Source: an uncultured bacterium (GTDB lineage: Bacteria; Patescibacteriota; Minisyncoccia; SW-4-49-11). From it: a stretch of 64,000 bases of DNA. Location of the stretch: positions 5,769 through 69,768 of the forward strand of contig CALMJI010000014.1 in assembly GCA_937864235.1 (NCBI GenBank). The letters run 5' to 3'. Shown in pieces: positions 13,203-63,990 of the stretch. The position numbers were made by a program, and so were the translations under genes. Every line of letters begins with the position of its first letter. Position 1 is the first letter of the stretch. Below the pieces are notes generated by a model, which saw only the letters and a program-made list of their open reading frames with translations, did not search any database and was not told the origin of the DNA.

Positions 13203-14858
13203 TTAGCTTCGGTCTATAAATTCCTCTCGGGAGCAGGGATCTGGCTTGATCAGATGTTGTGGAATCATAGCTTGTAATAATGATTCACTATTAGCTCCTA
13301 ATTTGGCTATATCATAAGCTAATTGTCTATAATTAATATGTCCTCCCGGTCTGACTCTAAGTTGTGTCATATAGCTAATTTCCTTAGGGGAAGCATGGAA
13401 AAATGAAGTAAAAATATGAGCAAATGGGAGTAGTTGAGTATAAATATATTGAGGGAACCAATCATATTGTGAACTTAAATCTACAAATTCTTGTAATTTG
13501 GTATAGTATTGTTGCAAATCCTGCTCAAATTCTTGTCTAATCTCTTTGAGAGCTGGGTTTTTGGTCAAATATAACGGTAAAGTATACCCTGTATAGAGAC
13601 TTGCTTTATAATTACTAGTGTTCAAAATTGGAATGTATCTACCCCAAGCTCGATGCCGATTCAAGTCTCTTAATTCAGAGTTAGAGCAAGTGAGTACAAA
13701 ACTATGGGTATTGACTCGAAATAAATTACCCATTTGTTTGTGATGATTGAAGTCTTTGAACAAAATTTTAGAAATATATGCCTTTTGTTCTATATTCAAA
13801 TTATCTATGAATTGTAAAATTGAATGAATATTGGCATTGGGATATATAGTTATAATATGTTGTAATAAAATTATAGTTCCCGCACTTAAACTCATATCTA
13901 ATAAGTCTGCTTTGAGTTTATGGCAAGTAATAGTATTTGCAAACTCTAAAGATTGGGTGATTTTTAGATGTTCTTCTAGATACTGCTGTAGTATATTCAA
14001 GTTTTGATTGGTAATAGTATCTGCCTCAGTATGCCTGATTAAATCTGGAGCTTCTGGAGTGTATTTTAGCTCTTGAGCTACACTTTCTTCTGGGGCAAAA
14101 AGTACTTCTAATTGCTCAGCAAGACAGACTAAATTATATTCATTGGAAGCCTTGAAAACTGAGATCAATCTAGCCCATTCTCTGGCTGAGGTTATATAGG
14201 CTAATGAAGTCTTATTCATCAGACCAGAGGGTAAAAAGTATCTAGTAGAGTCAAAAACTCTGGCTGTCAGAGCTCCTGCTTCTGACTTATTATTTTCATC
14301 TATGTTATATACTCTTGTGTATTCTGAGGTTAATTTGTCTTGGTAGTATTTATACTTTTCTAGAGAATATTGCTGTAAATCTAATAATTTCTGGTTAATT
14401 GTATCAAAGTTTTCTGAAGTTGTATCTACTCCTAGGCTATCAAGTCCCAGAGGCTTACTACTGCCAAAATCCTGATACCTAGTAGATCTTTGTTGCCCTC
14501 CTCCGACACTACTTTCATTAAAAAATATAGTAGAATAATGGTCTGGAATTTGCTCTATATAGGCAAAAAGTTGTGCCATATCTGCTACTGAGGAGTGGCC
14601 ATAATTACGAAAAATATTGGCTAGCTTTTCATTAGCATTACTGCCTGCTTTTCTAATTTCTTGGAATAACTCCTCTGCTGATAGGGCTGACCTTGAAAAT
14701 CTAGCCCCTGCAAAAGCCATAATAGATGCAGTTTGTTTGCCTGAATTTGGCAAAGCGGTTCTGACTGTATAGCCGGTACGAGAATCAGTAACCGAGACTA
14801 TAACTAAATCTGTTTTATCCTTGTCCGAGATACTAAATTTAAAGTTTGATTTATTCAT
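13203..14858 (-). CDS. thyX: Flavin-dependent thymidylate synthase ThyX-like protein (long, probably duplicated-domain form)
   Basis: 'QQRSTRY' in the N-terminal half and 'NRHRAWGRY' in the C-terminal half, matching the ThyX RHR...SxRY signature; immediately followed by dcd on the same strand. Confidence 0.45.
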   Translation of the reverse strand: MNKSNFKFSISDKDKTDLVIVSVTDSRTGYTVRTALPNSGKQTASIMAFAGARFSRSALSAEELFQEIRKAGSNANEKLANIFRNYGHSSVADMAQLFAYIEQIPDHYSTIFFNESSVGGGQQRSTRYQDFGSSKPLGLDSLGVDTTSENFDTINQKLLDLQQYSLEKYKYYQDKLTSEYTRVYNIDENNKSEAGALTARVFDSTRYFLPSGLMNKTSLAYITSAREWARLISVFKASNEYNLVCLAEQLEVLFAPEESVAQELKYTPEAPDLIRHTEADTITNQNLNILQQYLEEHLKITQSLEFANTITCHKLKADLLDMSLSAGTIILLQHIITIYPNANIHSILQFIDNLNIEQKAYISKILFKDFNHHKQMGNLFRVNTHSFVLTCSNSELRDLNRHRAWGRYIPILNTSNYKASLYTGYTLPLYLTKNPALKEIRQEFEQDLQQYYTKLQEFVDLSSQYDWFPQYIYTQLLPFAHIFTSFFHASPKEISYMTQLRVRPGGHINYRQLAYDIAKLGANSESLLQAMIPQHLIKPDPCSREEFIDRS

Positions 14859-37064: not shown

Positions 37065-37112
37065 AAACACGAGCCAGAATTTGACTCGTGGTGATAGGTG
37101 AAAGATGTAATT

Positions 37113-37367
37113 TTAATCATCTTTATATTCTCTACTATTTAAAAACTCTATATTTTTAATATTTTTTCCTACAATGCTATAAGGTAGTCCTTCTATAGAA
37201 TTAATATCTATACACTCATATAGTTCTGCAGGGTTAATTTCATCTGTGTAGCAGTCAAACCTTACATTAATATTTTGACCTTTATGAAAAATAATTCCTT
37301 GAAATATTTTAACAACTTTTTGAGAATTCTTTTGAATAGAAACTGTCATGATGCTAGTAAAAAACAC
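37113..37367 (-). CDS. Hypothetical protein
   Basis: 84-aa ORF, no motif recognised. Confidence 0.2.
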   Translation of the reverse strand: MFFTSIMTVSIQKNSQKVVKIFQGIIFHKGQNINVRFDCYTDEINPAELYECIDINSIEGLPYSIVGKNIKNIEFLNSREYKDD

Positions 37368-37448
37368 CTAAACTAAAATACACTAATTCACAAAATTTGT
37401 AAAGTATTGCATACTTTGTTAAAATATAAATAATTAAAATTATATACT

Positions 37449-37724
37449 ATGAATAAATTAAATTCTAATGAAATACTAGCCCAAATCAGCTCTAATTGGA
37501 AGTTATCCGAGAATAATGATCTTATATCTCGAAGTTTTGAACTTAATAACTTCGCTGAAGCTCTGGAGCTCGTCAATAAAATTGGAGAATTAGCAGACTC
37601 CGAGCAGCATCATCCAGACATTAACTTAGGTTGGGGTTATGTGGAAGTTTATCTTAGCACCCATGATATAGGAGGAATATCAGATAAAGACATTACTCTA
37701 GCTCAAGCTATAGATAAGATTTAA
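37449..37724 (+). CDS. Pterin-4-alpha-carbinolamine dehydratase (PCD/DCoH)
   Basis: 'W.L..N.LISRSFEL.NF.EAL.LVNKIGELAD...HHPD' core. Confidence 0.7.
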   Translation: MNKLNSNEILAQISSNWKLSENNDLISRSFELNNFAEALELVNKIGELADSEQHHPDINLGWGYVEVYLSTHDIGGISDKDITLAQAIDKI

Positions 37725-37739
37725 TATTAATATTTTTAT

Positions 37740-38033
37740 CTAAATTACATCAACTAAAAACGTAATAAATAATACTATACTTAATAATAAAAATATTATA
37801 GAAGATATAATCATAATATAATAAGAATAGCCTAAATTAGAAAGTATACTATTTAAAATTATTAAATATATTATAGATAGTATATATATTGATAAATATT
37901 TGAATAATAATTTGAAAACATTTTTTTTAGGTTTAATAAAGTCATTTAATATCTTATCTTTATAAAAATCCTTAACTTCTTGTAAGTTATTGTTGTTTAA
38001 ATTCTGATCTTGATTTAGATTTATTTTATTCAT
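37740..38033 (-). CDS. Hypothetical small membrane protein
   Basis: 97 aa, N/K-rich N-terminus and two hydrophobic helices; very AT-rich, so weak. Confidence 0.2.
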   Translation of the reverse strand: MNKINLNQDQNLNNNNLQEVKDFYKDKILNDFIKPKKNVFKLLFKYLSIYILSIIYLIILNSILSNLGYSYYIMIISSIIFLLLSIVLFITFLVDVI

Positions 38034-38337
38034 ATAGTATATAATATAGTTATATAAAAATATTATATACTATATTTATAATAGTGTAAAATTGTGAGAA
38101 TATTTTATTTATTTTTGCTATTAATTTTTGTCAAAAGTAAACAAAAGTTTTATATATACTTATTTTACTAAGTGTGAATTATTTCAGAGCATATATTTAT
38201 GCTATATTTTACTTAAGATTAAAATTTTATCAGTATTAGATTAAAGCAATACTGTCAAGTTATACACATTTAGACTTATTTAGTACTTTTATAATACCTA
38301 TAAAAACTTATGTTTAAGCCATATTTTGGTATTTTTC

Positions 38338-38366
38338 TTGACAAGTTTTAGCATATAGTATATAAT
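38338..38366 (+). promoter_or_regulatory. Consensus sigma-70 promoter upstream of the LysM/M23 peptidase gene
   Basis: Perfect TTGACA, a 17-nt spacer, then TATAAT. Confidence 0.45.
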
Positions 38367-38449
38367 ATTTTTGAATCTAAAATCATTAGACAAGGTTGAT
38401 TTTGAGTCAAGACTTATGTCTGTTTGTTCCGTTTTGAAGTTCGAATTCC

Positions 38450-42668: not shown

Positions 42669-44108
42669 CTAAGAATTTTTAGGGTTTTCTTCATTATACA
42701 GTTTATTTTTAATCATCGCTATATCTTGTTCTAGAGTATAATTGGAGACTAAATCTTTTTTGATCTTATTCCAAGCATGCATAACTGTGCTGTGATCTTT
42801 GCCACCCAAAGCTTCTCCAATATTAGGAAAGGTTAATTTTAATTCTTCTCGAATCAAATACATAGTAATTTGTCTTGGTACCGCAATATCTTTTTTACGG
42901 CTTTTGGATAAAATATCTTCTTTTTTAATATGAAAATGTTCAGCTACAATATTCAAAATTGTATCAGTATTGACAATTCTCTGAGAGTGAATTTGTCCTC
43001 CTTCAATCAATTTATCTACTAATTCAGGAGTAATTTGAGTATTTAATAATTGCACTCTAGCAATAATTTTATTCAAAGCACCTTCTAATTCACGGACATT
43101 GCTTTTGATTCTCTCGGCAATAACATAAATAATCTCATCGTCTAAATCAAAATGTTTTTGAATACATTTACTTTTCAAAATAGCTACTCTAGTCTCAAAT
43201 TCAGGAATAGCTACATCCACAATCATCCCTCCTTCAAAACGAGATTTCAATCTATCATTAAGAGTCTTAATAGCACTAGGAGGTCTATCGCTAGTAAATA
43301 CAATTTGTTTATTATGAGCATATAATTCATTAAAAGTATTAAATACTTCATATTGAGTAGCTTCTTTCCCACCAATAAATTGAATATCGTCAATTATAAG
43401 CAAATCTACAGCTCTATGGCGAGCTTTAAAATCATCCATTTTCCCATTTTTGAGAGAATTCATCAAATCTGAGATAAAGATATCCGAAGTCACATATAGT
43501 ATATTTTTATTATTTTTAGCTAATTTATTAGCAATAGCTTGAATCAAATGAGTTTTACCCAAACCAACTCCACCATAGATAAACAGAGGATTATATCTAG
43601 TTCCAGGTTCATTAGCTACCGACTGAGCAGCCGCATGAGCCAGCTCATTGGAAGATCCCACAATAAAGTTTTCAAAAGTGTAATTTTCTTTCAAAAGAGA
43701 AGTTCCATTTGGTCTTTGAGGCTGTACAAAATTATTCCCAGACTCAGAATTAAAGCCACCATTAGATATAGATGTGGCAGATAAAGCTTCTTTTTGAGAC
43801 TGTAACTCTTGATCCTTTAGATTAATAACTGATTTTATAGATTTGGAATTAGTCTTTTGATTATTCTGAACTACATATCTAACCCTTTTAACAGAGCCAG
43901 TAATTTTTTGAATAGAATTAAGAATAGTAAGATTGAATTTATTCTCTAGCCAATTACGAGTAAAAGCACTAGGTACGCAAATTACAATCTCAATCTCATC
44001 CATACTAATAGGATAAGTATTTTTGATCCAAGTATTGAATTGAGGCTTACTAATATTAAGCTCTATCTCTCCTAATACTGAATTCCAAACTCTTTGTTTC
44101 TCGTCCAT
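42669..44108 (-). CDS. dnaA: Chromosomal replication initiator protein DnaA
   Basis: AAA+ Walker A 'GGVGLGKTHL' and C-terminal DNA-binding domain 'IAMIKNKL'; 479 aa. Confidence 0.9.
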   Translation of the reverse strand: MDEKQRVWNSVLGEIELNISKPQFNTWIKNTYPISMDEIEIVICVPSAFTRNWLENKFNLTILNSIQKITGSVKRVRYVVQNNQKTNSKSIKSVINLKDQELQSQKEALSATSISNGGFNSESGNNFVQPQRPNGTSLLKENYTFENFIVGSSNELAHAAAQSVANEPGTRYNPLFIYGGVGLGKTHLIQAIANKLAKNNKNILYVTSDIFISDLMNSLKNGKMDDFKARHRAVDLLIIDDIQFIGGKEATQYEVFNTFNELYAHNKQIVFTSDRPPSAIKTLNDRLKSRFEGGMIVDVAIPEFETRVAILKSKCIQKHFDLDDEIIYVIAERIKSNVRELEGALNKIIARVQLLNTQITPELVDKLIEGGQIHSQRIVNTDTILNIVAEHFHIKKEDILSKSRKKDIAVPRQITMYLIREELKLTFPNIGEALGGKDHSTVMHAWNKIKKDLVSNYTLEQDIAMIKNKLYNEENPKNS

Positions 44109-49256: not shown

Positions 49257-51581
49257 ATGAATAATACAGTCAAAAATTTGAAAAGTTTAATCAAAAGCAC
49301 TTTGAAGGGTGATGAGAGATTATGGTTTGTCAATCAAGATAATGAACAGGAATTCAATCAAACTTTGCTTTTGGATTTGGTAGAAAAAGTAGATAATAAA
49401 ATTATTAGTCTATTATTACAAGAGGAAGTATTAAGAGAGAAGTTTTTTGTCAAAATTGTTCCACCCCGTCCAGCAAAGCTGTCCACCCCTCAAGAGGGGA
49501 ATTTTTCCTATGTCTTCAAAACTAATGAATTTAGATTCTTTATGGAGGAGAACAAAGTAGATAATTCATATACTAGTTTCAAAAATCGCATCGGGCTTAC
49601 TGATGGTAAAAAATTCCTCAAAGATAGTGGCGATATTGTATTAGATTGGCCGTATAAAGACTGTGTGCTAGAAGGTGGGCAAAGTACGGAGGAAGGATCA
49701 GATATTTATTTTGAATATGACACTAAATCCACCCCGTCAGGCAAGCCTGCCACCCCTCAAGAGGGGAATTATATCAAGAAGCAAGGTAAGAGAAAAGAAA
49801 TATTTTTCAATCAAGTTCTAGCTCAAGATGAGATAGATAGATTGCTAGATCCAAAGGCTTTGGTTAATTGGAAAAGATTTGATAAAAATGGTAAAACTCC
49901 CCTCTTGAGTGGTGGCGACGAAGTCGACGGGGTGGATGCTCTCAAAAGAAATGAAGACGGCACTATTGCTGAGAATTTGATTATAAAAGGCAATAATCTC
50001 TTAGCTCTACACTCTCTCAAAAAACAATTCCGAGGCAAAGTCAAGCTGATTTATATTGACCCACCTTATAATACTGGTAATGATGGCTTCAAATATAATG
50101 ATAACTTCAATCACTCCACTTGGCTGACTTTTATGAAAAATAGATTGGAAGTGGCAAGAGAGCTATTGCGGGAGGATGGGGTGATCTTTGTGCAATGTGA
50201 TGATAATGAGCAAGCATATTTGAAGGTTTTAATGGATGAGGTGTTTGGGAATAATTTTTTGAATACTATATCTGTAAAAGCAAAAGTTAGTGCAGGAGCA
50301 AGCGGAGGAGGTGAGGATAAAAGACTTAAAAAGAATATAGAGTATATACATTGTTACTTTAAGAAAGATTTTATTGTTTTTAACGATTTATACAAAGAAA
50401 CAGAAATAGTTTCATATATACAACAGATGAAAAATGAAGGGAAAAGTTTTAAATATACTCAGGTTTTAATTTCTACTGGTGAAAAAGAAATATTAAGAGT
50501 TATTAAAGATGGTTCTGGAGAAGATATTACAATCTATAAACACTCAGGAGTTGTAATTAAAACAATCTCTCAATTAATAAAAGAAGAGAATCTTTCTGTA
50601 AAGGAGGTATATAAAAAATATTTCAATAAAATTTTCACAACAACGAATGCACAAAGTTCAATTCGCCAAAGAGTTTGGGATGCAACTGGTAAAAACAATG
50701 ATTTTTTTAGTATTGAATATATTCCAAAATCAGGAAGAAATAAAGATAAATTAACCACACAATTTTATACAGGAAATAAAAAGGTTCTTCTAATATGGTT
50801 TAGCGATACAGCTATAATTGATAGTAAAGGAAATGTAATTAAAAAAGAAAAATACGGTACATTTTGGGATGGAATTGACTATAATAACTTAAATAAAGAG
50901 GGCGATAATATTTTTTCTTCTGGTAAAAAACCAGAAAAACTTATTCAAAGGATAGTTGAAATGAGTACAGAAAAAGGCGACATTGTGCTTGACTATCATC
51001 TTGGCTCTGGGACTACTTGTGCAGTGGCTCATAAAATGGGTCGGCAGTATATTGGAATTGAGCAAATGGATTATATTGAGACTATCGCTGTGGAGAGGTT
51101 AAAGAAAGTAATTAGGCAATCCACCTCCCCCGCTAAAGCGGGTACTCCTCAAGATGAGAATATTCCCCTCGTTGAGGGGTGGACTGCGAAGCAGGACGGG
51201 GTGGATTCTTTTGACACAGGAGGAATATCCAAAGCTATAAATTGGCAAGGTGGTGGCGATTTTATCTATTTTGAACTAGCTAAATGGAATCAGCAGGCTA
51301 AAGAAATAATTCAAGCAGCTGAGAGTTTGGAGGAGATGATTGGATGTTTGGATGAATTATCTGATAAATATTTCCTCAATTATAATCTCAAAATGCAAGA
51401 ATTTCGAGAAAAGGTAATCTTGGAGGCTGAGTTCCAAACTTTATCTCTAGAGAGCCAAAAAGCTATATTTATGGCTATGCTGGATAATAATCAGATGTAT
51501 GTCAATAAAAGTGAAATGGCTGATGAGAAATTTGGTATTAGTGAAGAGGAGCAGAAATTGACAGAGGAGTTCTATAAGTAA
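49257..51581 (+). CDS. mod: Type III restriction-modification system methyltransferase (Mod; beta-class N6-adenine/N4-cytosine MTase)
   Basis: Motif IV 'IYIDPPYN' upstream of motif I 'VLDYHLGSGTT' (beta-class order); 774 aa; a res gene lies downstream. It carries four in-frame GC-rich repeat modules. Confidence 0.8.
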   Translation: MNNTVKNLKSLIKSTLKGDERLWFVNQDNEQEFNQTLLLDLVEKVDNKIISLLLQEEVLREKFFVKIVPPRPAKLSTPQEGNFSYVFKTNEFRFFMEENKVDNSYTSFKNRIGLTDGKKFLKDSGDIVLDWPYKDCVLEGGQSTEEGSDIYFEYDTKSTPSGKPATPQEGNYIKKQGKRKEIFFNQVLAQDEIDRLLDPKALVNWKRFDKNGKTPLLSGGDEVDGVDALKRNEDGTIAENLIIKGNNLLALHSLKKQFRGKVKLIYIDPPYNTGNDGFKYNDNFNHSTWLTFMKNRLEVARELLREDGVIFVQCDDNEQAYLKVLMDEVFGNNFLNTISVKAKVSAGASGGGEDKRLKKNIEYIHCYFKKDFIVFNDLYKETEIVSYIQQMKNEGKSFKYTQVLISTGEKEILRVIKDGSGEDITIYKHSGVVIKTISQLIKEENLSVKEVYKKYFNKIFTTTNAQSSIRQRVWDATGKNNDFFSIEYIPKSGRNKDKLTTQFYTGNKKVLLIWFSDTAIIDSKGNVIKKEKYGTFWDGIDYNNLNKEGDNIFSSGKKPEKLIQRIVEMSTEKGDIVLDYHLGSGTTCAVAHKMGRQYIGIEQMDYIETIAVERLKKVIRQSTSPAKAGTPQDENIPLVEGWTAKQDGVDSFDTGGISKAINWQGGGDFIYFELAKWNQQAKEIIQAAESLEEMIGCLDELSDKYFLNYNLKMQEFREKVILEAEFQTLSLESQKAIFMAMLDNNQMYVNKSEMADEKFGISEEEQKLTEEFYK
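49460..49505 (+). repeat. In-frame GC-rich repeat module inside mod (encodes PPRPAKLSTPQEGN)
   Basis: ccaccccgtccagcaaagctgtccacccctcaagaggggaat, the same module as intergenic copies R4, R5 and R14. Confidence 0.55.
49729..49770 (+). repeat. In-frame GC-rich repeat module inside mod (encodes STPSGKPATPQEGN)
   Basis: ccaccccgtcaggcaagcctgccacccctcaagaggggaat, nearly identical to R4 at 28856..28885. Confidence 0.55.
49897..49940 (+). repeat. In-frame GC-rich repeat module inside mod, inverted orientation (encodes PLLSGGDEVDGVD)
   Basis: cccctcttgagtggtggcgacgaagtcgacggggtggat. It contains the reverse complement of the ccaccccgtc and cccctcaaga modules. Confidence 0.45.
51121..51200 (+). repeat. 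In-frame GC-rich repeat module inside mod C-terminal region (encodes STSPAKAGTPQDENIPLVEGWTAKQDGVD)
   Basis: ccacctcccccgctaaagcgggtactcctcaag..cccctcgttgaggggtgg..gacggggtggat. It shares gggtactcc, cccctcgttgagggg and ccaccccgtc motifs with R2, R4 and R8. Confidence 0.5.
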
Positions 51582-51590
51582 TTATGAATT

Positions 51591-52628
51591 ATGAAAAAAG
51601 AGAAAAAACAATTATCTCAAATCATACAATCAAGTACAGCTCAGTATTTGACTTTTGTGTCGGCCAATGGTGATGATTCGTCTAGTATAGAAGTAAGATA
51701 TGAGGATGAGAATATTTGGATGACTCAAAAAATGCTGGCGGAACTGTATGATGTATCTGTGTCGGCCATCAATCAGCATATTAAGAAATTAACAGAAGAT
51801 AATGAGATAAACGATTCAGTTATTAAGCAATACTTAATAACTGCTAGTGATGGTAAGAAATATAATACGGCTCACTACAATCTTCAAACAATTATTTCTA
51901 TTGGATTTAAAATAGAAAATGAAAGAGCGGTACAATTTCGTAAATGGGCAAGAGAAATAGTAAAAGAGTATACTATTAAGGGTTTTGTAATGGATGATGA
52001 GAGGCTCAAAAATGGAGGTACCACTTTAACTAAAGAGTTTTTTGAACAACTTCTTGAAAGAATTAGAGAAATAAGGCTATCGGAGAGAAAGTTTTATCAA
52101 AAAATTACTGATATTTATGCAACAGCGATTGATTATGATTCTAGTGCAGAGACGACAAAAAAGTTTTTTGCTATGGTACAAAACAAGCTTCACTGGGCAA
52201 TTCATGGACAAACAGCCTCTGAATTGATCTATACTCGGGCAAATTCAGAAAAAGAAAATATGGGGCTTACTTCTTGGAAAGATGCACCAAAAGGGAAAAT
52301 TCAAAAATTTGATGTGAGTATTGCCAAAAATTATCTTACTGACAAAGAACTTGCAAGTTTACAAAGAATAGTATCGGCATATCTGGATATCGCAGAAGAT
52401 ATGGCAGAGAGAAATATCCCAATGACAATGCAAGATTGGGCAAAAAGACTCAATACCTTTATAGAGGCAGCAGATAGAAAAGTGCTTCAAGATGCTGGGA
52501 AGATTACCGCACAAATAGCAAAGGACTTTGCAGAAAGTGAATTTGAAAAATATAGAATTGTGCAAGATAGATTGTTTGAATCAGATTTTGACCGTGAGAT
52601 AAAAAAACTTTTAGAAAACAATTTATAA
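51591..52628 (+). CDS. RhuM-family (virulence-protein RhuM-like) HTH protein embedded between mod and res
   Basis: N-terminal 'TQKMLAELYDVSVSAINQHIKKL' HTH and conserved RhuM-like core 'RAVQFRKWAREIVKEY'; 345 aa. Confidence 0.5.
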   Translation: MKKEKKQLSQIIQSSTAQYLTFVSANGDDSSSIEVRYEDENIWMTQKMLAELYDVSVSAINQHIKKLTEDNEINDSVIKQYLITASDGKKYNTAHYNLQTIISIGFKIENERAVQFRKWAREIVKEYTIKGFVMDDERLKNGGTTLTKEFFEQLLERIREIRLSERKFYQKITDIYATAIDYDSSAETTKKFFAMVQNKLHWAIHGQTASELIYTRANSEKENMGLTSWKDAPKGKIQKFDVSIAKNYLTDKELASLQRIVSAYLDIAEDMAERNIPMTMQDWAKRLNTFIEAADRKVLQDAGKITAQIAKDFAESEFEKYRIVQDRLFESDFDREIKKLLENNL

Positions 52629-52631
52629 TAT

Positions 52632-53474
52632 ATGAAAACACAATTAATTCACCAACTTACGGCCAATTTCGAAGATTTATCACATCAGACAAATTATGGA
52701 GTAGAGTTTTGGTTGGCAAGAGACTTACAACATCTTTTGGGCTATGATAAATGGGATAATTTTAAGAATATTATTAGTAAAGCAAAAACAGCTTGTGAAA
52801 TTTCTGGGCAGAAAGTTACAGACCATTTTGCCGACGTCGGGAAAATGGTCTCTATAGGTTCAGGTGCTGAAAAAGAAATAGAAGACTTAATGTTAACTCG
52901 CTATGCTTGTTATCTCATTGCTCAAAATGGAGACTCAAGAAAACAGGAAATTGCCTTTGCTCAGACTTATTTTGCAGTACAAACCAGAAAAGCTGAAATT
53001 ATAGAACAAAAAATCCTTGAATATGAAAGAGTTCAGGCTAGAAATAAACTTGCAGAAACTGAAAAAGAGCTATCTCAAGTAATATTTGAACAAACAGGAA
53101 GTGATCAAAACTTTGCACTAATTAGAAGTAAAGGTGATCAAGCTTTATTTAATCAAACTACTCAACAAATGAAGGGTAAATGGGGAATTAAGAATAAGCC
53201 TCTTGCTGATTTTATGCCAACCATATTACTGAAAGCTAAAGATTTTGCTACTGAAATTACTATTTTTAATGCCAAAGAAAAAAAGATGCAAACAGAGCAT
53301 CAAATTTCAAATGAGCATATTACTAACAATAAATCTGTGAGACATACTCTTATTACTCGTGGTATTACTCCAGAAAATTTACCACCTGAAGAAGATGTCA
53401 AAAAAATTGCCAGAAAACTAAAAAAAGAGGAGAAAAAAACTATTAAAACAGATGATACCTTTGGTAATTCATAA
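52632..53474 (+). CDS. dinD: DNA-damage-inducible protein D (DinD)-like protein
   Basis: 'GVEFWLARDLQHLLGYDKWDNFKNIISKAKTACEISGQKVTDHFADVGKMV...LTRYACYLIAQNGDSRKQEIAFAQTYFAVQTRKAE' aligns closely with the E. coli DinD N-terminal domain. Confidence 0.6.
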   Translation: MKTQLIHQLTANFEDLSHQTNYGVEFWLARDLQHLLGYDKWDNFKNIISKAKTACEISGQKVTDHFADVGKMVSIGSGAEKEIEDLMLTRYACYLIAQNGDSRKQEIAFAQTYFAVQTRKAEIIEQKILEYERVQARNKLAETEKELSQVIFEQTGSDQNFALIRSKGDQALFNQTTQQMKGKWGIKNKPLADFMPTILLKAKDFATEITIFNAKEKKMQTEHQISNEHITNNKSVRHTLITRGITPENLPPEEDVKKIARKLKKEEKKTIKTDDTFGNS

Positions 53475-53489
53475 CTTATAATTAACACT

Positions 53490-56261
53490 ATGTCAGAGAT
53501 CAAAAATCTATATGAAATCATCGGAGAAAAGGCTTATAGGCTAAGATTGCCTTATCCTGAAATTCCAGATTATATTACTGATAATCTGAAATATAGTTTT
53601 TTTGATTGGCAAAAGTCGGCTTTTGAGAATTTTTTGACTTATCAGGCGATTAAGGACATTGAAACTCCTAATGAGCCGACTCATCTGATGTTTAATATGG
53701 CCACAGGTACTGGTAAAACTATGCTGATGGCAGCTACTATTTTGTATTATTATAAGCAGGGGTATCGGCATTTTTTGTTTTTTGTGAATCAAAATAATAT
53801 TGTAGATAAGACGGAGAATAATTTTATAGATAATGCTCATAATAAGTATTTGTTTCAGGATAAAATTGTTATTGACAGAGAAACGGTGGAATTAAAGAAA
53901 GTTGAGGTGTTTAGTGATAATCCGACTGGAATTGAGATTAAGTTTACTTCGATTCAAAAATTGTATAATGATATTCATTTGCAAAAAGAGAATCAGACTA
54001 CCTTGGATGATTTGATGTCTCGTGATTTGGTGATGTTGGCAGATGAGGCTCATCATTTTAACACTGATACCAAAAAAGCTAAATTGCAGACTAATTTGAT
54101 TGAGGCGGAATTAAATAATAAATCTAGTGAAAATTTGATTGAAAAGTTGGGTTGGGAGCATACGGTTATAGAGTTGATTTTGAAAAGAAATAATTCACAA
54201 GATCATCTGCGGGCGAATAAAAATGTGCTTTTGGAATTCACGGCGACTATTCCAGCTACGGCGAGTGTGGCTAAAAAATATGAGGATAAAATCATTTATA
54301 AATTTGGCTTAAAGGAGTTTTTACAAGCAGGTTATACTAAGCAAATTAATCTTATTTCGTCGAATTTGGAGAAAAAGGATAGAATTTTGCAGGCTTTGCT
54401 TTTCCATTGGTATCGGCATAAAGTAGCTCTAGATGCTGGTATTCCTAATTTTAAGCCAGTGATTTTGTTTAGAAGCAAGACTATTGAGGAGTCTAAACAG
54501 GATTATGAGGAATTTGTGGATATGGTATCTAATTTGTCTTTGGAGGATTTGAAATTCTTGGATTATATTTTGGAGAATTTTAAGTTTGCTAATCATAGTC
54601 TGTATGAGCAAGGTAAGAATAGAACGGAGCAATTGGTGGATTATATACAGGTGAATAAAATTAGCCGTAGTGAGATTATAGATTTTATTAAGCATAATTT
54701 TCAAGAGAAAAATATAATTATTACTAATTCCAAAAGTAATAAAACCAAAAAAGAGAAAACTGATGCTGAGGTGGAGCGATTATTGAATAATCTAGAGGAT
54801 AAGAATAATCATATTCGGGCTATTTTTACGGTGGAGCGATTGACTGAAGGTTGGGATGTCTTGAATTTGTATGATATTGTCCGGCTGTATGAAGGGCAAA
54901 ATACGGGTGGCTCAAACTTTAAATCTAATAAAACTCCAGAGTCAACTACAAAGGAAAAACAGCTGATTGGGCGAGGGGTGAGATATTATCCTTTTGATTA
55001 CCCAGAAAAGGATAGGCATAAGCGAAAATTTGATAATGATACTCAAAAGCGAGAGCGAATTTTGGAGGAGCTATTCTTTTATAGTGTGAATGAAAGTAGA
55101 TATATTTCAGAGCTAAAAACCGAGTTAAAAAGGGAGGGGTTTATTGATGAGAATCGGAATATTAGAACTTTTGAATTAAAAGAAAATTTCAAAAAGACAG
55201 ATTTTTATAAGCAATTCAGAGTCTGGCAAAATAAAAAAATCCCTAATCCTAATCGGCGAAAAAACACTTTAGCTGACTTGAAGCAGGACAAGAATTATTT
55301 TATTGCTCCTTTTCAAGTGCAAAATTATAGTGTCAAAGAGTACGGAGTGGATTTTAATAACCCTGAAAAGGAAATTAGGCAGAATCAGATGGCAAATCCT
55401 AATGCTAATTATACGATTAAATTAACTAAAGTGGAGAGGCATATTTTTTATAAGGCGATTCATATTCTGGCTAAGCAAGAAAATTCTCTGTATAGATTCG
55501 ATAAATTGAGTCAGGAATTGGCTATCAATAGTATTGATGACTTGTTAAAACCAGAATTTTTGGGGGATATGGAGGTGGCTTTCAAGCTCCCAGCAAAGAT
55601 GAGTTATCTGGATTTGGATAATAAGCATAAATTGAATGCGGTGATTTTGTTTTTGGCAGATATTGAGAGTAGATTAACTGAGTCTATTAGTGAATATATA
55701 GGTAGTCGGGAGTTTTATCCTAAGAGTCTGGATAGTATTTTTGGAGCTCCTAAAGCTAAAGTTATTGATGAGCTAAATGAAAATACCGAATTTGCTGAGC
55801 AAAATGATTGGTATGTATTGAATAATTTTGTGGGCACAGATCAGGAGCGATATTTGGTGGAATTTATCAAAGACTCTATGTCGCAGTTGGAGCAGCAATA
55901 TAAAGAGATTTATCTTTTGCGAAACGAGGAGATTTATGGGATTTATGATTTTGATAAGGGTAGAACTTTTATGCCAGATTTCTTGCTGTTTTTGAAGACT
56001 AAAGATAAAAAGAGTGTCGGAGTGGCAAATACAGAATTATATTATCAGGTATTTATCGAGCCAAAAGGTGAGCAATTATTATCTTTGGATGCTTGGAAAA
56101 ATGATTTTCTGAATAAAATTCAAAAAGATTATGGTCCTGAGAATATTATTCAAGCTGAGAATCCTAATTATAGGTTAATTGGATTGCCTTTATTTAATCA
56201 ACAACTGAGTGCTGAATTTAGAGATAAATTTTCAAAATTAATGGAAACTAATAACAGCTAA
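53490..56261 (+). CDS. res: Type III restriction enzyme, Res subunit (SF2 helicase plus PD-ExK nuclease)
   Basis: Walker A 'MATGTGKT', DEAH box 'MLADEAHH', helicase motif VI region, and C-terminal PD-(D/E)xK-like 'MPDFLLFL...VFIEPKG'; 923 aa. Confidence 0.8.
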   Translation: MSEIKNLYEIIGEKAYRLRLPYPEIPDYITDNLKYSFFDWQKSAFENFLTYQAIKDIETPNEPTHLMFNMATGTGKTMLMAATILYYYKQGYRHFLFFVNQNNIVDKTENNFIDNAHNKYLFQDKIVIDRETVELKKVEVFSDNPTGIEIKFTSIQKLYNDIHLQKENQTTLDDLMSRDLVMLADEAHHFNTDTKKAKLQTNLIEAELNNKSSENLIEKLGWEHTVIELILKRNNSQDHLRANKNVLLEFTATIPATASVAKKYEDKIIYKFGLKEFLQAGYTKQINLISSNLEKKDRILQALLFHWYRHKVALDAGIPNFKPVILFRSKTIEESKQDYEEFVDMVSNLSLEDLKFLDYILENFKFANHSLYEQGKNRTEQLVDYIQVNKISRSEIIDFIKHNFQEKNIIITNSKSNKTKKEKTDAEVERLLNNLEDKNNHIRAIFTVERLTEGWDVLNLYDIVRLYEGQNTGGSNFKSNKTPESTTKEKQLIGRGVRYYPFDYPEKDRHKRKFDNDTQKRERILEELFFYSVNESRYISELKTELKREGFIDENRNIRTFELKENFKKTDFYKQFRVWQNKKIPNPNRRKNTLADLKQDKNYFIAPFQVQNYSVKEYGVDFNNPEKEIRQNQMANPNANYTIKLTKVERHIFYKAIHILAKQENSLYRFDKLSQELAINSIDDLLKPEFLGDMEVAFKLPAKMSYLDLDNKHKLNAVILFLADIESRLTESISEYIGSREFYPKSLDSIFGAPKAKVIDELNENTEFAEQNDWYVLNNFVGTDQERYLVEFIKDSMSQLEQQYKEIYLLRNEEIYGIYDFDKGRTFMPDFLLFLKTKDKKSVGVANTELYYQVFIEPKGEQLLSLDAWKNDFLNKIQKDYGPENIIQAENPNYRLIGLPLFNQQLSAEFRDKFSKLMETNNS

Positions 56262-56264
56262 TTT

Positions 56265-57272
56265 ATGGCCTATATATTCACCCTTTTATTCTTAATCTCT
56301 TGTGTCTGTCTAGTGGTGGGTCTGATTAGGCCGAGGGTTTTTGCGGGATTATTCCAGGGTAAGTCTACCAGAAAGCAGATTGGGATTATGTTTGGGATGC
56401 TGATTTTTGTCTCATTTGTTTTGGTGGCTGCTAGTCCTCTTCCAGAGGGTTATGAAGAACAGTCTAATGAGCCAAAAGCAGAGGAAGTGGTAATTCCAGA
56501 GACTGAGGTTGCTAACTCTGAGCCAGAAGAGGTGAAACCTGAGGAAGTACAAGAGGAAAACACCCCTGTAGAGGCAAATTTGCCTGCTCCAGTGGCAGTT
56601 CAAGACAACACTAGTATTACAGAGGCAGAAGTAAAACCTGAGCCAAAAGAGGAGCAAAACCAGGTTAAGGATTTATTCCAAGTGACGGAGGTAGTGGATG
56701 GAGATACGATTAAAGTTAGTCTTCTTGGAACTTTACGGCTAATTGGGATAGACACTCCAGAGACTAGAGACCCAAGGAAGCCAGTGCAGTGTTTTGGAAG
56801 AGAAGCTAGTAATAAAGCAAAAGAATTATTGAGTGGTAGAAAAGTGTATTTGGAATATGATCCTGCTAACAAAAAAGATAAGTATGGGCGGACTTTGGCT
56901 TATGTCTATCGGGAAGATGGGTTGTTTTATAATGCTGAGATGATAAAACAGGGTTATGCCCACTCTTATGTACAATTCCCACATCCTAGATTAGATGAGT
57001 TTAATATTTATCAGCGAGAGGCTAGAGAAAATGAACGAGGCTTTTGGGCGACTAATACTTGTAATGGAGATACAACTAAGGCTGCTTCTGGATCAAAGCC
57101 TAAATCTACTACTCCCCTACCAATTAGTCCAGAATTCAATAAAGATGGATTTATAGCAGGAACTTGTGCTAGTCTCAAAAAATTGGGTTTGGGTAATTTT
57201 AGAGAGGGTGACCCGAATTATACTAAATCAAGGGACGGGGACGGAGATGGGGTCGCTTGTGAGATGAATTAA
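56265..57272 (+). CDS. Membrane-anchored staphylococcal-nuclease (SNase/thermonuclease) domain protein with C-terminal Excalibur Ca-binding domain
   Basis: Two N-terminal TM helices, E/P-rich linker, SNase core 'VVDGDTIKV...LRLIGIDTPE...GRTLAYVY', C-terminal 'DGDGDGVACE' Excalibur motif. Confidence 0.75.
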   Translation: MAYIFTLLFLISCVCLVVGLIRPRVFAGLFQGKSTRKQIGIMFGMLIFVSFVLVAASPLPEGYEEQSNEPKAEEVVIPETEVANSEPEEVKPEEVQEENTPVEANLPAPVAVQDNTSITEAEVKPEPKEEQNQVKDLFQVTEVVDGDTIKVSLLGTLRLIGIDTPETRDPRKPVQCFGREASNKAKELLSGRKVYLEYDPANKKDKYGRTLAYVYREDGLFYNAEMIKQGYAHSYVQFPHPRLDEFNIYQREARENERGFWATNTCNGDTTKAASGSKPKSTTPLPISPEFNKDGFIAGTCASLKKLGLGNFREGDPNYTKSRDGDGDGVACEMN

Positions 57273-57328
57273 GAAAAAACCCCTACAAAATAGGGATTTG
57301 GGTTGTTATTGAGTTGTTGGATCGGGAC

Positions 57329-58033
57329 TCAGCCAACGAGTGCGGCTGCTGCCATTCGAGCTATTTCACGGTTTTCAAATCCGATATCCATCAGAGCTTC
57401 CTGATAGGAACTGAGGAAATCAGCCATCAGGTCTTCCTTGTCCATGTGAAGCGCTTTAGCATCCACAGCCACCTGGTCGAGCATTTTGCGAACCAAGGGC
57501 AGATTGTCCCGGTTAGCCTGCTTCAATTCCTCCCGACTGGCATTGAGATTGGCCTTCAGCCATTCCTGTCCGTAGTTGAGATGAGTGTATTCATCTTTGA
57601 CCACCCGTTCTGTGATCTTGCGGGCAAATGGATCGGCCACTGGGATATAAATGTGGTAGGCGGAAATCGCAAAGGCTTCGATCAAGATTGCCTGAATCAA
57701 CATGCAGGTCACCACTTTGCCATCAGTGATGGCCTTCTGAAAATTGCCATGCAATGGAGCGAAGAACTCCTTTGCAAACGGCATATCTGCTGTCACACCG
57801 AGGTTGTTGGCACAGGCGGTGAAACCTTTCATATGCTTGAGCTCCATGCGGGCCAGCTTGACAAGCTCCTCCACCTGGTCTGGCATCAGGGTGCCAATAG
57901 CGATGTAGTTGTCATGAGCCTCCTGTTCACCCTTGATTACGATGGCATTGATGCGACTGTAGGCATCTTTGTAGGTGTCACTTGTGAAGTCTGGGAGATC
58001 AGATTGTTCACCGGTAATTGATACTGCTGTCAA
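57329..58033 (-). CDS. ado: Aldehyde-deformylating oxygenase (ADO, cyanobacterial-type ferritin-like di-iron enzyme), N-terminally truncated, apparent TTG start
   Basis: Near full-length match to the cyanobacterial ADO family signature blocks 'DFTSDTYKDAYSRINAIVIKGEQEAHDNYI', 'KGFTACANNLGV', 'CMLIQAILIEAFAISAYHIYIPVADPFARKITERVVKDEYTHLNYGQEWLKAN'. The ORF sits in a ~770-bp block of about 50% GC, against about 30% background. Confidence 0.8.
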   Translation of the reverse strand: MTAVSITGEQSDLPDFTSDTYKDAYSRINAIVIKGEQEAHDNYIAIGTLMPDQVEELVKLARMELKHMKGFTACANNLGVTADMPFAKEFFAPLHGNFQKAITDGKVVTCMLIQAILIEAFAISAYHIYIPVADPFARKITERVVKDEYTHLNYGQEWLKANLNASREELKQANRDNLPLVRKMLDQVAVDAKALHMDKEDLMADFLSSYQEALMDIGFENREIARMAAAALVG

Positions 58034-58352
58034 GGTGCTAGCTGGGAGTTTAACCCAGGCTATAGGACATTTTTATACTATACCTTTTTGATAGTTTTGT
58101 ATATAGTATAAAATAAAAGGAGGGTTTTTATACCCTCATATGAATAAATAGCATTTTGATAAAAATTGTAAGTGCGTAAAATGAAAGAATTACAGCGGCG
58201 GTGGCAGATAAGAATCTTATAAGTCTAAAGTCCATATATCAAAACTTCATAGGTCAATTCTAAACCAGCATTTTTTATAAGATAATTCAAGATTGGGTGA
58301 ATTTAAAATATGTGGAGATGGATATCCACCTCAGAATGGTAACATAATATAA

Positions 58353-58495
58353 GTCCTCCTCCGTCACCTACGGTGCCACCCACCTCCTAAATAAATATAG
58401 GAGGGACTTAAAGCTCCCCCAAGGGAGGACAGTAATTTTGTCCCTCGCCAGCGAGGGACAAAATACAACAGGCGACTGAAAGGTCGCCCATACAA
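58353..58495. repeat. GC-rich modular hairpin repeat, copy R13 (inverted orientation relative to R7)
   Basis: gtcctcctccgtcacctacggtgccacccacctcctaaataaatataggagggacttaaagctcccccaagggaggac is the reverse complement of 48530..48610. It is followed by gtccctcgccagcgagggac and ggcgactgaaaggtcgccc. Confidence 0.6.
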
Positions 58496-58499
58496 AAAA

Positions 58500-58820
58500 C
58501 TACTCCGCCTCTGACTCCTCTCCTCCACCAATAGTGAAAGCTGAGATTAGCTGTTCCCGAACGGCCTCAATATTAGCTTGGATAATTTCTGAGACTATAT
58601 TACTAGCTTCTTGTTGTCCTTGTTCTATTCCTTCTTGAACAATTTTCTCCCCTTCAGCTACGATTGGTTGGGATATTTCGGCTACTGGTTGAGTTACGGT
58701 AGCTAGATTTGGTTTTATAAAAGTATTAAATACAATTACACCTCCAACAATTGAGAGTATTAGAAAGACTCCAATTCCAGCAATGATGAAAGTGAAGATT
58801 TTAGGCATCATTTTAGGCAT
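58500..58820 (-). CDS. Hypothetical small membrane-anchored protein
   Basis: 106 aa; N-terminal TM helix, E/Q-rich C-terminal region. Confidence 0.3.
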   Translation of the reverse strand: MPKMMPKIFTFIIAGIGVFLILSIVGGVIVFNTFIKPNLATVTQPVAEISQPIVAEGEKIVQEGIEQGQQEASNIVSEIIQANIEAVREQLISAFTIGGGEESEAE

Positions 58821-62474: not shown

Positions 62475-63581
62475 CTACCTCAACGGGACTTTGTATAAAT
62501 TATTGTCTCGGCGGTTTATAAAGAATAACTCGGTTCCTGCGGAGTTGAGGAATAAATCTCTAGAATCTACACTTCCAATATTACTAGATAATTGACTGGC
62601 TGTAGCTGTATCTATATCTATTTTATATAAACTTTCATTAAATTCTCCTAAATTAGAGGTGTAATAGTCATCAGGTAAAATTTTAGTATTAGCAACTTCT
62701 GGTTTGGTGAAATAAGCGGTTTTACTGTCTGAGCTCCAAACTATTTTCTCAGCAATAGTTCCTACATCTGGAATTTTGGATAATTCAAAACCAGCTTTAT
62801 CCACTATGGATAGGGCTAATTGTCCGCTACCCCTCTCGGTATTATAGGATATAATTCCAATTTCTCCATTAGGTGACCAAGAGATATTCAGCCCATTTTT
62901 CTCATCTAGAACGGAAGTTGCTTGCCCAGTATCTATATTGATGATTCTAAGAGCAGAGGCTCTATAACTACTAGGTACTAGAGTTTGGCTAATACTATTT
63001 TTTAAAGGTATAGTTTTTAGAAATACTGCATTTGAGCTTAGAGTTATAATTTTTGTCCAATTAGATCCATCAGCATTACTAACGGATAAATCTACAGTGC
63101 CATCTTTATTTTGAAAGGTATAAAAAACTCTATTATCTGATAAAAATTGAGCTGAGCTAACATCAATTGGGAAAGCATAAGATATATTCTCAGCATAATT
63201 ATAGCTATAAACTCTATTTTGAATTTTGGTTAAGACATATGGAGAAGTTGGTGCCCAAGAAACTGATGTCAGTCCAGTCAAAACAGTCTCATCTAATATG
63301 GTAGACTCTCCCCCACTGGCAGGAATTCTAAAAGTTTGTCCTTTATCTAATGAATAATATCTAATACTATTTTTATCATCAATAGTAGCATTAACTATGG
63401 TAATATCTACTAATTTTGATGCTGTTAAAGCTGTTGTTTTATTCTCAGTTTCCTCAGATTGGGTCTCTTTAGGTTTAGGGGCTTCTGGAGGACGAGAACT
63501 ATATTGAAATATCAAAAAGCCAACTATACCTAAAGGTATTATTGTAATAGCTAGAATAAGTAATAATTTTGTTTTAGACAT
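62475..63581 (-). CDS. Hypothetical secreted or membrane-anchored protein (beta-rich, possible propeller)
   Basis: N-terminal TM helix, P/E-rich linker, then a long S/T/N-rich region with repeated beta-strand-like segments. Confidence 0.3.
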   Translation of the reverse strand: MSKTKLLLILAITIIPLGIVGFLIFQYSSRPPEAPKPKETQSEETENKTTALTASKLVDITIVNATIDDKNSIRYYSLDKGQTFRIPASGGESTILDETVLTGLTSVSWAPTSPYVLTKIQNRVYSYNYAENISYAFPIDVSSAQFLSDNRVFYTFQNKDGTVDLSVSNADGSNWTKIITLSSNAVFLKTIPLKNSISQTLVPSSYRASALRIINIDTGQATSVLDEKNGLNISWSPNGEIGIISYNTERGSGQLALSIVDKAGFELSKIPDVGTIAEKIVWSSDSKTAYFTKPEVANTKILPDDYYTSNLGEFNESLYKIDIDTATASQLSSNIGSVDSRDLFLNSAGTELFFINRRDNNLYKVPLR

Positions 63582-63585
63582 AAGT

Positions 63586-63990
63586 TTATAAATTTAGGGT
63601 AAATATATCATCGGATACAGCTTCCTCATCCATTTGAGCTTTAGCTGCTTGAATTTTGAGTAATTGTTCAGGGTCTGAAGTTATGATTTGGTCTTCTCCA
63701 TAAGATGCAACTACTTTTATAGCTGCGTGTTTTAATCCAGCAAAGAAAATACCTTCTCCTACATCTGACTCTAGTAATAAGAATTTTTCTTCTTCAGTTA
63801 GATAAAAGGTATCTTTAATAATATCGATTGAGGCTGGTGATTGTTTTAGTAAAATCTGAATGGAAGAATTGGTAAGAATAGCCTTCCCATATTCAGAAGC
63901 TAGGAAATCCGCAATATCCTGAGTAATAGTAGTAAGCCCAAGATAGTATTTACGCGCTCTTTTGGCTAGAGAGAATAGGAAAGATGCCAC
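63586..63990 (-). CDS. C-terminal fragment of a VirB4/TrbE-like conjugative or type IV secretion ATPase (partial at window edge)
   Basis: 'LGLTTITQDIADF...ILLKQSP' resembles the C-terminal region of VirB4-family ATPases; the N-terminus lies beyond the window. Confidence 0.3.
   Translation of the reverse strand: MASFLFSLAKRARKYYLGLTTITQDIADFLASEYGKAILTNSSIQILLKQSPASIDIIKDTFYLTEEEKFLLLESDVGEGIFFAGLKHAAIKVVASYGEDQIITSDPEQLLKIQAAKAQMDEEAVSDDIFTLNL

Follow-up and report, generated by a model that had tools for sequence, protein, structure and literature searches.

A cyanobacterial-type aldehyde-deformylating oxygenase gene in a freshwater lineage of the candidate phyla radiation

The stretch of DNA analysed here (the window) comprises 64,000 nucleotides of contig CALMJI010000014.1 (GenBank assembly GCA_937864235.1) from an uncultured bacterium of the Patescibacteria, or candidate phyla radiation (CPR), and carries on its minus strand a gene for aldehyde-deformylating oxygenase (ADO). 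We think it probable that a functional ADO gene was captured by a freshwater CPR lineage near Candidatus Elulimicrobium humile from a freshwater picocyanobacterium and has long been kept. Orthologues of ado and of its partner gene aar, which encodes acyl-ACP (acyl carrier protein) reductase (AAR), were stated in 2024 to be exclusive to cyanobacteria (PMC11376386), ADO has been described as unique to that phylum (PMC3903477), and both sources tie ado/aar to a photoautotrophic lifestyle. The gene described here departs from cyanobacteria-only occurrence: the contig that carries it also bears CPR housekeeping genes, and a related ADO locus (L087) has the GTDB title Minisyncoccia bacterium. In the searchable literature we found nothing relevant that connects Patescibacteria or CPR with ADO or aldehyde decarbonylase, and ADO goes unmentioned in the paper that described Ca. 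E. humile. The protein family is known; what is new is the CPR host, the separation from AAR and the population genetics of the gene.

The ADO gene and its host genome

The gene occupies the following position, and its product matches two family profiles over their full length.

57329..58033, minus strand: ADO gene, 234 aa from a TTG start; allele A of at least 10 CPR alleles

The open reading frame (ORF) matches Pfam PF11266 (Ald_deCOase) with 381.5 bits (cut-off 28; E 1.9e-114) across profile positions 1–218 of 218, and the NCBIfam equivalog model TIGR04059, 'aldehyde oxygenase (deformylating)', with 390.5 bits (cut-off 222.65) across positions 1–220 of 220. The closest solved structure is the ADO of Prochlorococcus marinus MIT9313 (PDB 2OC5/4KVQ; E 1.5e-112), with 74.7% identity over 229 aligned residues, such that residues 5–233 of the window protein align with residues 15–243 of 244 in 2OC5; 20 ADO chains in the PDB are matched altogether. 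We mapped onto this alignment the six residues that we take, from ADO structures, to be the di-iron ligands. All are retained in the window protein (E36, E64, H67, E119, E148 and H151, window numbering), and with them the two E-x28/29-E-x2-H motifs of a non-haem di-iron site. The ligands are likewise kept in 7 of 7 CPR alleles examined (A–G). The original prediction, made from the sequence alone, had matched the ORF to the ADO family over essentially its full length, including the di-iron ligand helices, and in this it was right; the motifs that it quoted (EQEAHDNY, LIEAFAISAY and KDEYTHLNYG) are present. A search of the CPR alleles for residues that they have in common and that are rare in cyanobacteria, as signs of neofunctionalisation, found none, and there is thus no sign of an altered active site or activity in the CPR enzyme.

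The predicted contrast in base composition is equally clear. The ORF has a GC content of 0.501 and a third-position GC content (GC3) of 0.58–0.61, its flanks lie at 0.30–0.36, and 1-kb windows across the whole 64 kb range from 0.25 to 0.41; the GC-rich block is made up essentially of the ORF and some 40 nt of the 5′ untranslated region (UTR). The surrounding DNA is an ordinary bacterial chromosome, with dnaA (42669–44108), dnaN, dnaE, uvrB, RF2, yidC, ssb, FtsX, ribosomal protein S6 and ABC exporters, a genomic GC content of ~35% and a GC3 of 0.28 in the host genes of the window. Exact-sequence look-up of the window DnaA, DnaE and RF2 gave 90%-identity clusters whose named members are Candidatus Parcubacteria bacterium and Candidatus Elulimicrobium humile. 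The ORF is a bona fide cyanobacterial-type ADO inside a non-cyanobacterial, AT-rich genome, and the host is a freshwater CPR lineage close to Ca. E. humile, a Patescibacteria lineage from Chattahoochee lakes that was found at low abundance and only from July to October (10.1101/826941).

A very recent, truncated and decaying fragment, or a cyanobacterial–CPR assembly chimera, could produce the jump in GC content, the TTG start, the in-frame stop upstream of it and the absence of AAR, and the original prediction had raised these explanations. We regard them as highly improbable. At least 20 contigs from independent studies and assemblers have the same ADO junctions, and the identical protein is found on 13 other contigs. 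The gene order Wzy_C, Wzy_C, hyp106, ADO and a convergent SNase-Excalibur gene recurs in many independent assemblies, including L001–L009 (Logan, JGI and ENA; different samples and assemblers), L087 and L102–L104 (short contigs that were the top matches of unknown context), and this order is also seen in 5 of 12 loci that were retrieved through the neighbouring Wzy_C anchor (L091, L093, L094, L095 and L100). The recurrence of these junctions in Logan, JGI, ENA and NCBI assemblies of many samples excludes a chimera, and the diversity of the ADO alleles excludes a single shared contaminated reference. The ADO–CPR junction is real. The signs of age and selection described below (ten intact alleles covering the full profile, GC3 half-way to that of the host and purifying selection) also speak against a recent, decaying fragment.

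The start of the gene can be accounted for as well. An in-frame stop was found 13 codons upstream of the TTG, much as predicted, and had been taken to mean that the upstream junction cut the native N-terminus. Nucleotide alignment of the upstream regions, however, places the CPR TTG opposite the cyanobacterial ATG (..GGTAGCC ATG GCG ACC.. in cyanobacteria versus ..GCTAGCACC TTG ACA ACC.. in CPR), allele D retains ATG at this position and the profiles are covered in full, all of which argues that the gene is not truncated. We had also considered that the TTG might be Leu4 of the donor protein, and dropped this idea because the alignment and allele D show the TTG to be homologous to the donor ATG. 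The N-terminal region of the CPR protein is shorter, and N-terminal length varies among cyanobacteria too. TTG is the sole start codon in 8 of 10 alleles; alleles G and I also have an upstream in-frame GTG or ATG.

Donor, amelioration and allele history

The nearest relatives, at 85–89% amino acid identity, come from freshwater Cyanobium, Vulcanococcus, Synechococcus CS-13xx and lake metagenome-assembled genomes (MAGs). Among the best 80 matches to species-representative genomes, all are freshwater picocyanobacteria at 79–87% amino acid identity, with the CPR locus L087 as the sole exception. The donor was therefore probably a freshwater picocyanobacterium of the Cyanobium/Vulcanococcus/Synechococcus 5.2 type. 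The expected horizontal acquisition from picocyanobacteria is borne out by these matches and by the shift in GC3. A marine affinity is not, given that marine Prochlorococcus MIT9313 reaches just 74.7%. Five GTDB representative MAGs of a 'JJ-' series (L035, L044, L051, L055 and L063) carry ADO and AAR in flanks of 63–71% GC and look like picocyanobacteria; their titles (Mesorhizobium carmichaelinearum, Pimelobacter simplex, Bradyrhizobium ivorense, Chitinophaga pinensis and Asaia bogorensis) are evidently wrong.

Composition indicates both the direction and the age of the transfer. Cyanobacterial ADO genes have a GC content of 50–66% and a mean GC3 of 0.84 within flanks of 58–72% GC, whereas the CPR alleles have a GC content of 47–55% and a GC3 of 0.49–0.72 within flanks of ~35% GC. 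Changes were counted at those third positions on which at least 60% of cyanobacterial genes agree: in every CPR allele 44–82 run from GC to AT and 1–3 from AT to GC. Intermediate GC3 together with these one-way changes indicates transfer from a cyanobacterium to CPR. The CPR genes are roughly half-way ameliorated, and each allele has drifted independently toward the AT-rich composition of its host. The best nucleotide identity between a CPR allele and any sampled cyanobacterial ADO gene is about 0.80–0.82, and ADO is found in the same slot across lineages whose host genes differ by synonymous divergence (dS) of 0.4–1.1. The notion of an un-ameliorated, recently acquired block thus has to be abandoned. 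High-GC3 patches that would mark recent cyanobacterial import are absent from the CPR alleles, save for a modest rise in allele E.

Little else appears to have arrived with the gene. DNA homology between CPR and cyanobacteria ends at the ADO stop codon; outside the ORF, a search for cyanobacterial remnants found loose similarity near the start (the segments preceding TTG and ATG aligned above) and just past the stop, and no AAR fragment. Integration was confined to the ADO ORF and no more than a few tens of further nucleotides. No ADO relative was found in viral contigs, and hence there is no evidence of a phage vector.

All ten CPR alleles are intact. Ratios of nonsynonymous to synonymous divergence (dN/dS) are 0.20–0.25 for CPR alleles A, H and I at dS 0.25–0.33, versus a cyanobacterial median of 0.126 (interquartile range 0.036–0.213), and 0.06–0.12 for CPR alleles at dS above 0.8, versus a cyanobacterial median of 0.082. 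CPR ADO is under purifying selection as strong as that in cyanobacteria, and the cassette that carries it is common to at least 10 divergent alleles across a genus-level CPR clade. The suspected decaying pseudogene is contradicted by this range of dN/dS as it is by the intact reading frames and the kept ligands.

The alleles have not, however, simply descended together with their flanks. A comparison of the window with allele J (L104) defines the following segment.

57404..57944, minus strand: gene-conversion tract wholly within the ADO ORF (gene nt 90–630), with 137 mismatches (~72% identity) versus allele J

On either side of this tract the two sequences are identical within the gene (nt 1–89 and 631–705), and they remain so, but for one mismatch, through ~1.6 kb downstream (the SNase gene and the 3′ end of ResIII). 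The differing interior is already AT-shifted and no sampled allele matches it above ~80%, indicating that its donor was another CPR genome. Lineages B and C provide a second case. Their 20-kb loci are 99–100% identical (VirB4 dS 0.008, GT2 dS 0 and flanks dS 0–0.03) and their ADO genes are 100% identical to nt ~250, then only 77–80% identical to the end, across a 1.5-kb indel and into the 3′ end of the SNase gene. CPR strains have thus swapped ADO alleles through homologous recombination whose breakpoints fall within the ORF. Further short divergent patches between B and C suggest that short-tract exchange with divergent relatives is frequent in these CPR genomes and not special to ADO. In the same sense, L005 and L007, otherwise 99–100% identical, differ in patches of 54–86% identity at L005 1913–2280, 6281–6853, 7054–7253 and 19244–19591.

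The cassette has probably also been lost. In a tree of the first Wzy_C protein (WzyC1), the ADO-less lineages L090 and L099 branch from within groups that bear ADO, and ADO is present in the lineage of allele G, the most basal one sampled whose sequence extends to the slot, so that absence of the cassette from some CPR lineages is best read as loss.

The history of the ADO core is less straightforward, and two readings could accommodate it: capture followed by near-immediate radiation, or a cassette installed once whose ORF core was later overwritten, more than once and long ago, by homologous recombination with DNA from different picocyanobacteria, leaving alleles of different ancestry. We hold the second reading to be tentative, a minority possibility that nonetheless has several results on its side. 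Placed among cyanobacterial sequences, the CPR cores form one clade in 0 of 100 neighbour-joining bootstraps and fall into 4–7 separate groups, and each allele is nearer to some cyanobacterial ADO (0.87–0.94 amino acid identity) than to most other CPR alleles (0.80–0.86). Quartet site counts (A|C 9:2:0, B|E 9:1:1, C|E 9:1:1 and D|E 10:2:0) point to cyanobacterial affinities that differ between alleles, and such counts arise with P of about 0.002–0.008 when a homoplasy-rich simulation from a single ancestor is scored in the same way; the trees were built by neighbour joining from 220 sites, the simulation uses a crude model and the choice of nearest neighbours biases the counts. Derived silent changes are shared among CPR alleles at only about 1.2 times the expectation under independence, CPR-specific residues are lacking, and recombination tracts confined to the ORF do occur. 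On the other side, no allele has a segment with cyanobacterial-level GC3 or above ~88% nucleotide identity to a sampled cyanobacterial gene, so that any cyanobacterial overwriting must be old, and both traceable recent conversions had CPR donors, one tract including the SNase gene and the other being already ameliorated.

The ADO cassette and its slot

ADO lies in a single conserved cassette within one intergenic slot, about 13 kb from dnaA. The parts of the cassette and its neighbours are as follows.

57280..58499, no strand: variable cassette of 1,227 bp from the SNase stop to the hyp106 stop, delimited by aligning the window to the empty sites L090 and L099
58034..58118, minus strand: 5′ UTR and promoter-like region of the cassette, about 85 nt alignable in alleles A–G (7 of 7)
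57277..57299, minus strand: intrinsic-terminator-like hairpin and T-run directly past the ADO stop, with a 10-pair stem and the tail TTTCTTAATT; bidirectional with the convergent SNase gene
58120..58491, minus strand: four G+C-rich terminator-like hairpins between hyp106 and the promoter-like region (58491–58468, 58420–58401, 58332–58315 and 58137–58120)
56265..57272, plus strand: convergent SNase-Excalibur nuclease gene, membrane-anchored or secreted, 335 aa (PF00565, 2.6e-24; PF05901, 2.4e-09); conserved flank of the slot
58500..58820, minus strand: hyp106, small membrane protein and upstream neighbour, with no Pfam match; conserved flank of the slot
49257..56261, plus strand: island of type III restriction–modification (R-M) methylase, RhuM, Bro-N and ResIII helicase genes (Pfam matches, gene tables), beside the slot and outside the cassette

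In the ADO-less relatives L090 and L099 an unrelated 425-bp segment replaces the 1,227-bp cassette, and homology with the window stops just past the SNase stop and returns at the hyp106 stop. The SNase gene ends 56 nt past the ADO stop, and it adjoins ADO in every CPR locus long enough to reach it; the original prediction had correctly placed the end of an unrelated nuclease gene, rather than AAR, next to ADO. The other flank, hyp106, is 75–94% identical among relatives and is present with and without ADO. The empty form of the slot has a 61-aa ORF (MSHFVINGEP...; L090 644–829 and L099 3219–3404), and lineages B, C and J have an ORF of 51–55 aa (MKESVNLKIGQSF...) upstream of ADO (L005 9736–9891, L093 5347–5514 and L104 223–378); the window slot has neither.

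The conserved stretch upstream of ADO reads CTATATACAAAAnTATCAAAAAGGTATAGTATAAC...CTGGGTTA..CCCAGCTAGCACC and then TTG. It contains a TATAGT box (58082 to 58077) 44 nt before the start within an AT-rich stretch, followed by a more GC-rich 5′ UTR, and its conservation suggests a role as promoter. A simple scan for the sigma-70 consensus gave no minus-strand promoter upstream of ADO. There is no Shine–Dalgarno motif before the gene, which is usual for this genome, where GGAG, GAGG or AGGA is found upstream of only 2 of 30 long window ORFs. Besides the upstream ~85 nt, the aligned alleles A–G share the short N-terminus, and 6 of the 7 (A, B, C, D, F and G) have in common about 60 nt downstream with the hairpin and T-run, which are missing in allele E. 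Terminator-like sites are in excess between hyp106 and ADO (7 observed versus 1.4 expected) and Rfam gave no match for the hairpin cluster; the four hairpins set ADO apart as an insulated, monocistronic unit.

The sequence of events that we propose begins with capture of the ADO ORF alone from a picocyanobacterium into the one slot between the SNase-Excalibur and hyp106 genes. The start codon has mutated from ATG to TTG, and the gene forms a monocistronic cassette that runs from the AT-rich promoter-like region to the terminator hairpin.

Envelope polysaccharide genes (two Wzy_C genes, a GT2 gene and a flippase gene) and a defence island lie near the slot, as the original prediction had pointed out. 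The R-M island is a lineage-specific insertion, absent from L005 and L007, where the GT2 gene adjoins the SNase gene directly. Traces of it are seen elsewhere: L094 and L102 have a 44-aa remnant of the methylase N-terminus beside the SNase gene and L100 has the ResIII gene alone. Type IV secretion-like genes (a TraC-like gene, a VirB4/DUF87 ATPase of 609 aa and a 368-aa protein with no assignment) are found 4–6 kb from ADO (window 62475–63990; L002 1936–5559); in Patescibacteria such systems have been linked to monoderm conjugation machinery (PMC12102498). Farther away, 13203–14858 (minus strand) holds a 551-aa ORF with a weak ThyX (Thy1) match at residues 47–241 beside a dCTP deaminase gene, an unusually long ThyX-like protein, and 37065–38449 is a 1.4-kb segment of 25–27% GC with no ORF of at least 120 aa. 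Rfam and tRNA scans of the window gave no match anywhere.

Alkane pathway, substrate and comparison with known systems

In picocyanobacteria AAR (TIGR04058) directly follows ADO in 78 of 79 loci, its identity being verified at 604 bits in L081. At the CPR loci AAR is never beside ADO and no trace of it is seen at any of the ten alleles, and tblastn with AAR against the window and 22 CPR loci (277,640 bp, much of it redundant) gave no match (best E 3). The ado-aar pathway as defined is incomplete in the CPR DNA examined. To our knowledge, CPR bacteria are generally without fatty-acid synthesis and acyl-ACP and depend on hosts for lipids. These points make it improbable that the genome holds a complete alkane pathway, in which AAR or another fatty acyl reductase encoded elsewhere would let the cell form alkanes from its own or scavenged acyl chains. 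In favour of such an arrangement, the search extended to just 64 kb of this genome and to some 278 kb of loci from relatives, many of them overlapping, and FAAR-type reductases are widespread (PMC3903477).

The kept ligands and the dN/dS suggest that the protein would carry out the ADO reaction in the CPR cell, in which a long-chain fatty aldehyde (Cn), O2 and four electrons supplied by a ferredoxin-type donor yield a Cn-1 alkane and formate. No ferredoxin or ferredoxin–NADP reductase turned up among the window ORFs in a general Pfam scan. With no AAR alongside ADO and with CPR bacteria generally not making fatty acids, the aldehyde most likely originates in a host cell, from which lipids or aldehydes would be taken, and the enzyme might serve in any of several ways: alkanes for membrane properties, removal of harmful aldehydes or provision of formate. 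A homologue of cyclopropane-fatty-acyl-phospholipid synthase (CMAS) at 347–1540 of the window adds another lipid-modifying enzyme to a genome that would be expected to scavenge its lipids. CPR bacteria in general have reduced metabolism (PMC11665869).

ADO acts on a broad range of aldehydes and is a slow enzyme. It could be asked whether the CPR protein keeps the fold for another job, either removal of toxic aldehydes or that of an O2-consuming or iron-binding ferritin-like protein, with alkanes as an incidental product. This breadth and slowness, the lack of an AAR to supply substrate and a weak ferritin-like EncB match of the ORF are in keeping with it. We nevertheless consider it unlikely, since the gene is constrained like its cyanobacterial counterparts, has acquired no CPR-specific substitutions and retains all di-iron ligands.

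The identity of the donor, the shared habitat and the late-summer occurrence of Ca. E. humile make picocyanobacteria the obvious candidate for the host cell of this CPR bacterium, and give a concrete host prediction for a candidate phylum known only from MAGs. Other freshwater CPR, the Gracilibacteria, have been observed in association with picocyanobacteria by catalysed reporter deposition fluorescence in situ hybridization (CARD-FISH; PMC9166423). A bolder proposal is that Elulimicrobium-like CPR are epibionts or parasites of freshwater picocyanobacteria that take up host DNA, have sampled ADO more than once into a fixed cassette, and make alkanes from host aldehydes or lipids for their very small, highly curved and wholly scavenged membranes. 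This would be a speculative and rather doubtful extension. If it is true, ADO would be the first alkane-forming enzyme beyond cyanobacteria and a genomic marker of the host of an uncultivated candidate phylum.

Returning to the capture and long retention of a functional ADO gene, five points weigh against it or against parts of it: (i) the non-monophyletic cores argue that its history was probably not a simple single capture with vertical descent; (ii) the TTG start is atypical for this host, whose long window ORFs begin with ATG in 30 of 30 cases, ADO being the exception; (iii) the promoter is proposed from conservation, and the consensus scan missed it; (iv) AAR, another aldehyde-forming reductase or a ferredoxin or ferredoxin–NADP reductase partner may sit elsewhere in the CPR genome; and (v) the picocyanobacterial host is argued solely from donor identity and habitat, the seasonal argument being drawn from the July–October detection of Ca. 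E. humile.

That ADO is conserved and under selection in an ultrasmall bacterium that scavenges lipids and does not photosynthesize breaks the link between ADO and photoautotrophy and raises the question of what use alkane formation or aldehyde removal has outside thylakoid-bearing cells. Where meta-omic studies of the hydrocarbon cycle take ado as a marker of cyanobacteria, a small part of the signal is to be expected from other bacteria. In addition, the locus shows with unusual clarity how, in nature, a foreign gene is ameliorated and its alleles are shuffled within the gene.

Compared with the cyanobacterial enzymes (MIT9313 PMT1231, PDB 2OC5; Synechococcus elongatus orf1593), the CPR protein is of the same length class and matches them over its full length, with the identities given above (74.7% to 2OC5 and 85–89% to the freshwater types), the same two E...EXXH motifs and dN/dS in the same range. 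The CPR gene differs in lying on a CPR chromosome as a monocistronic unit with an AT-rich, host-type promoter region and a TTG start, in having neither AAR nor accA adjacent, in its half-shifted codon composition and in its shorter N-terminal variable region. With respect to the ADO–AAR alkane operon of cyanobacteria (Schirmer et al. 2010, as cited in PMC11376386), the CPR DNA has the second enzyme of the pathway, ADO, whereas the first, AAR, is missing from the 277,640 bp examined. Other gene acquisitions by CPR include a haem-copper oxidase operon from Proteobacteria (PMC9166423), and horizontal gene transfer has been described as shaping the metabolism of Patescibacteria (PMC12455944). Like these, ADO is a metabolic gene from an unrelated phylum that has been retained in a reduced CPR genome; unlike them, it has a cyanobacterial donor, was deemed exclusive to the donor phylum and forms a cassette that is polymorphic at the population level, with deeply divergent alleles.

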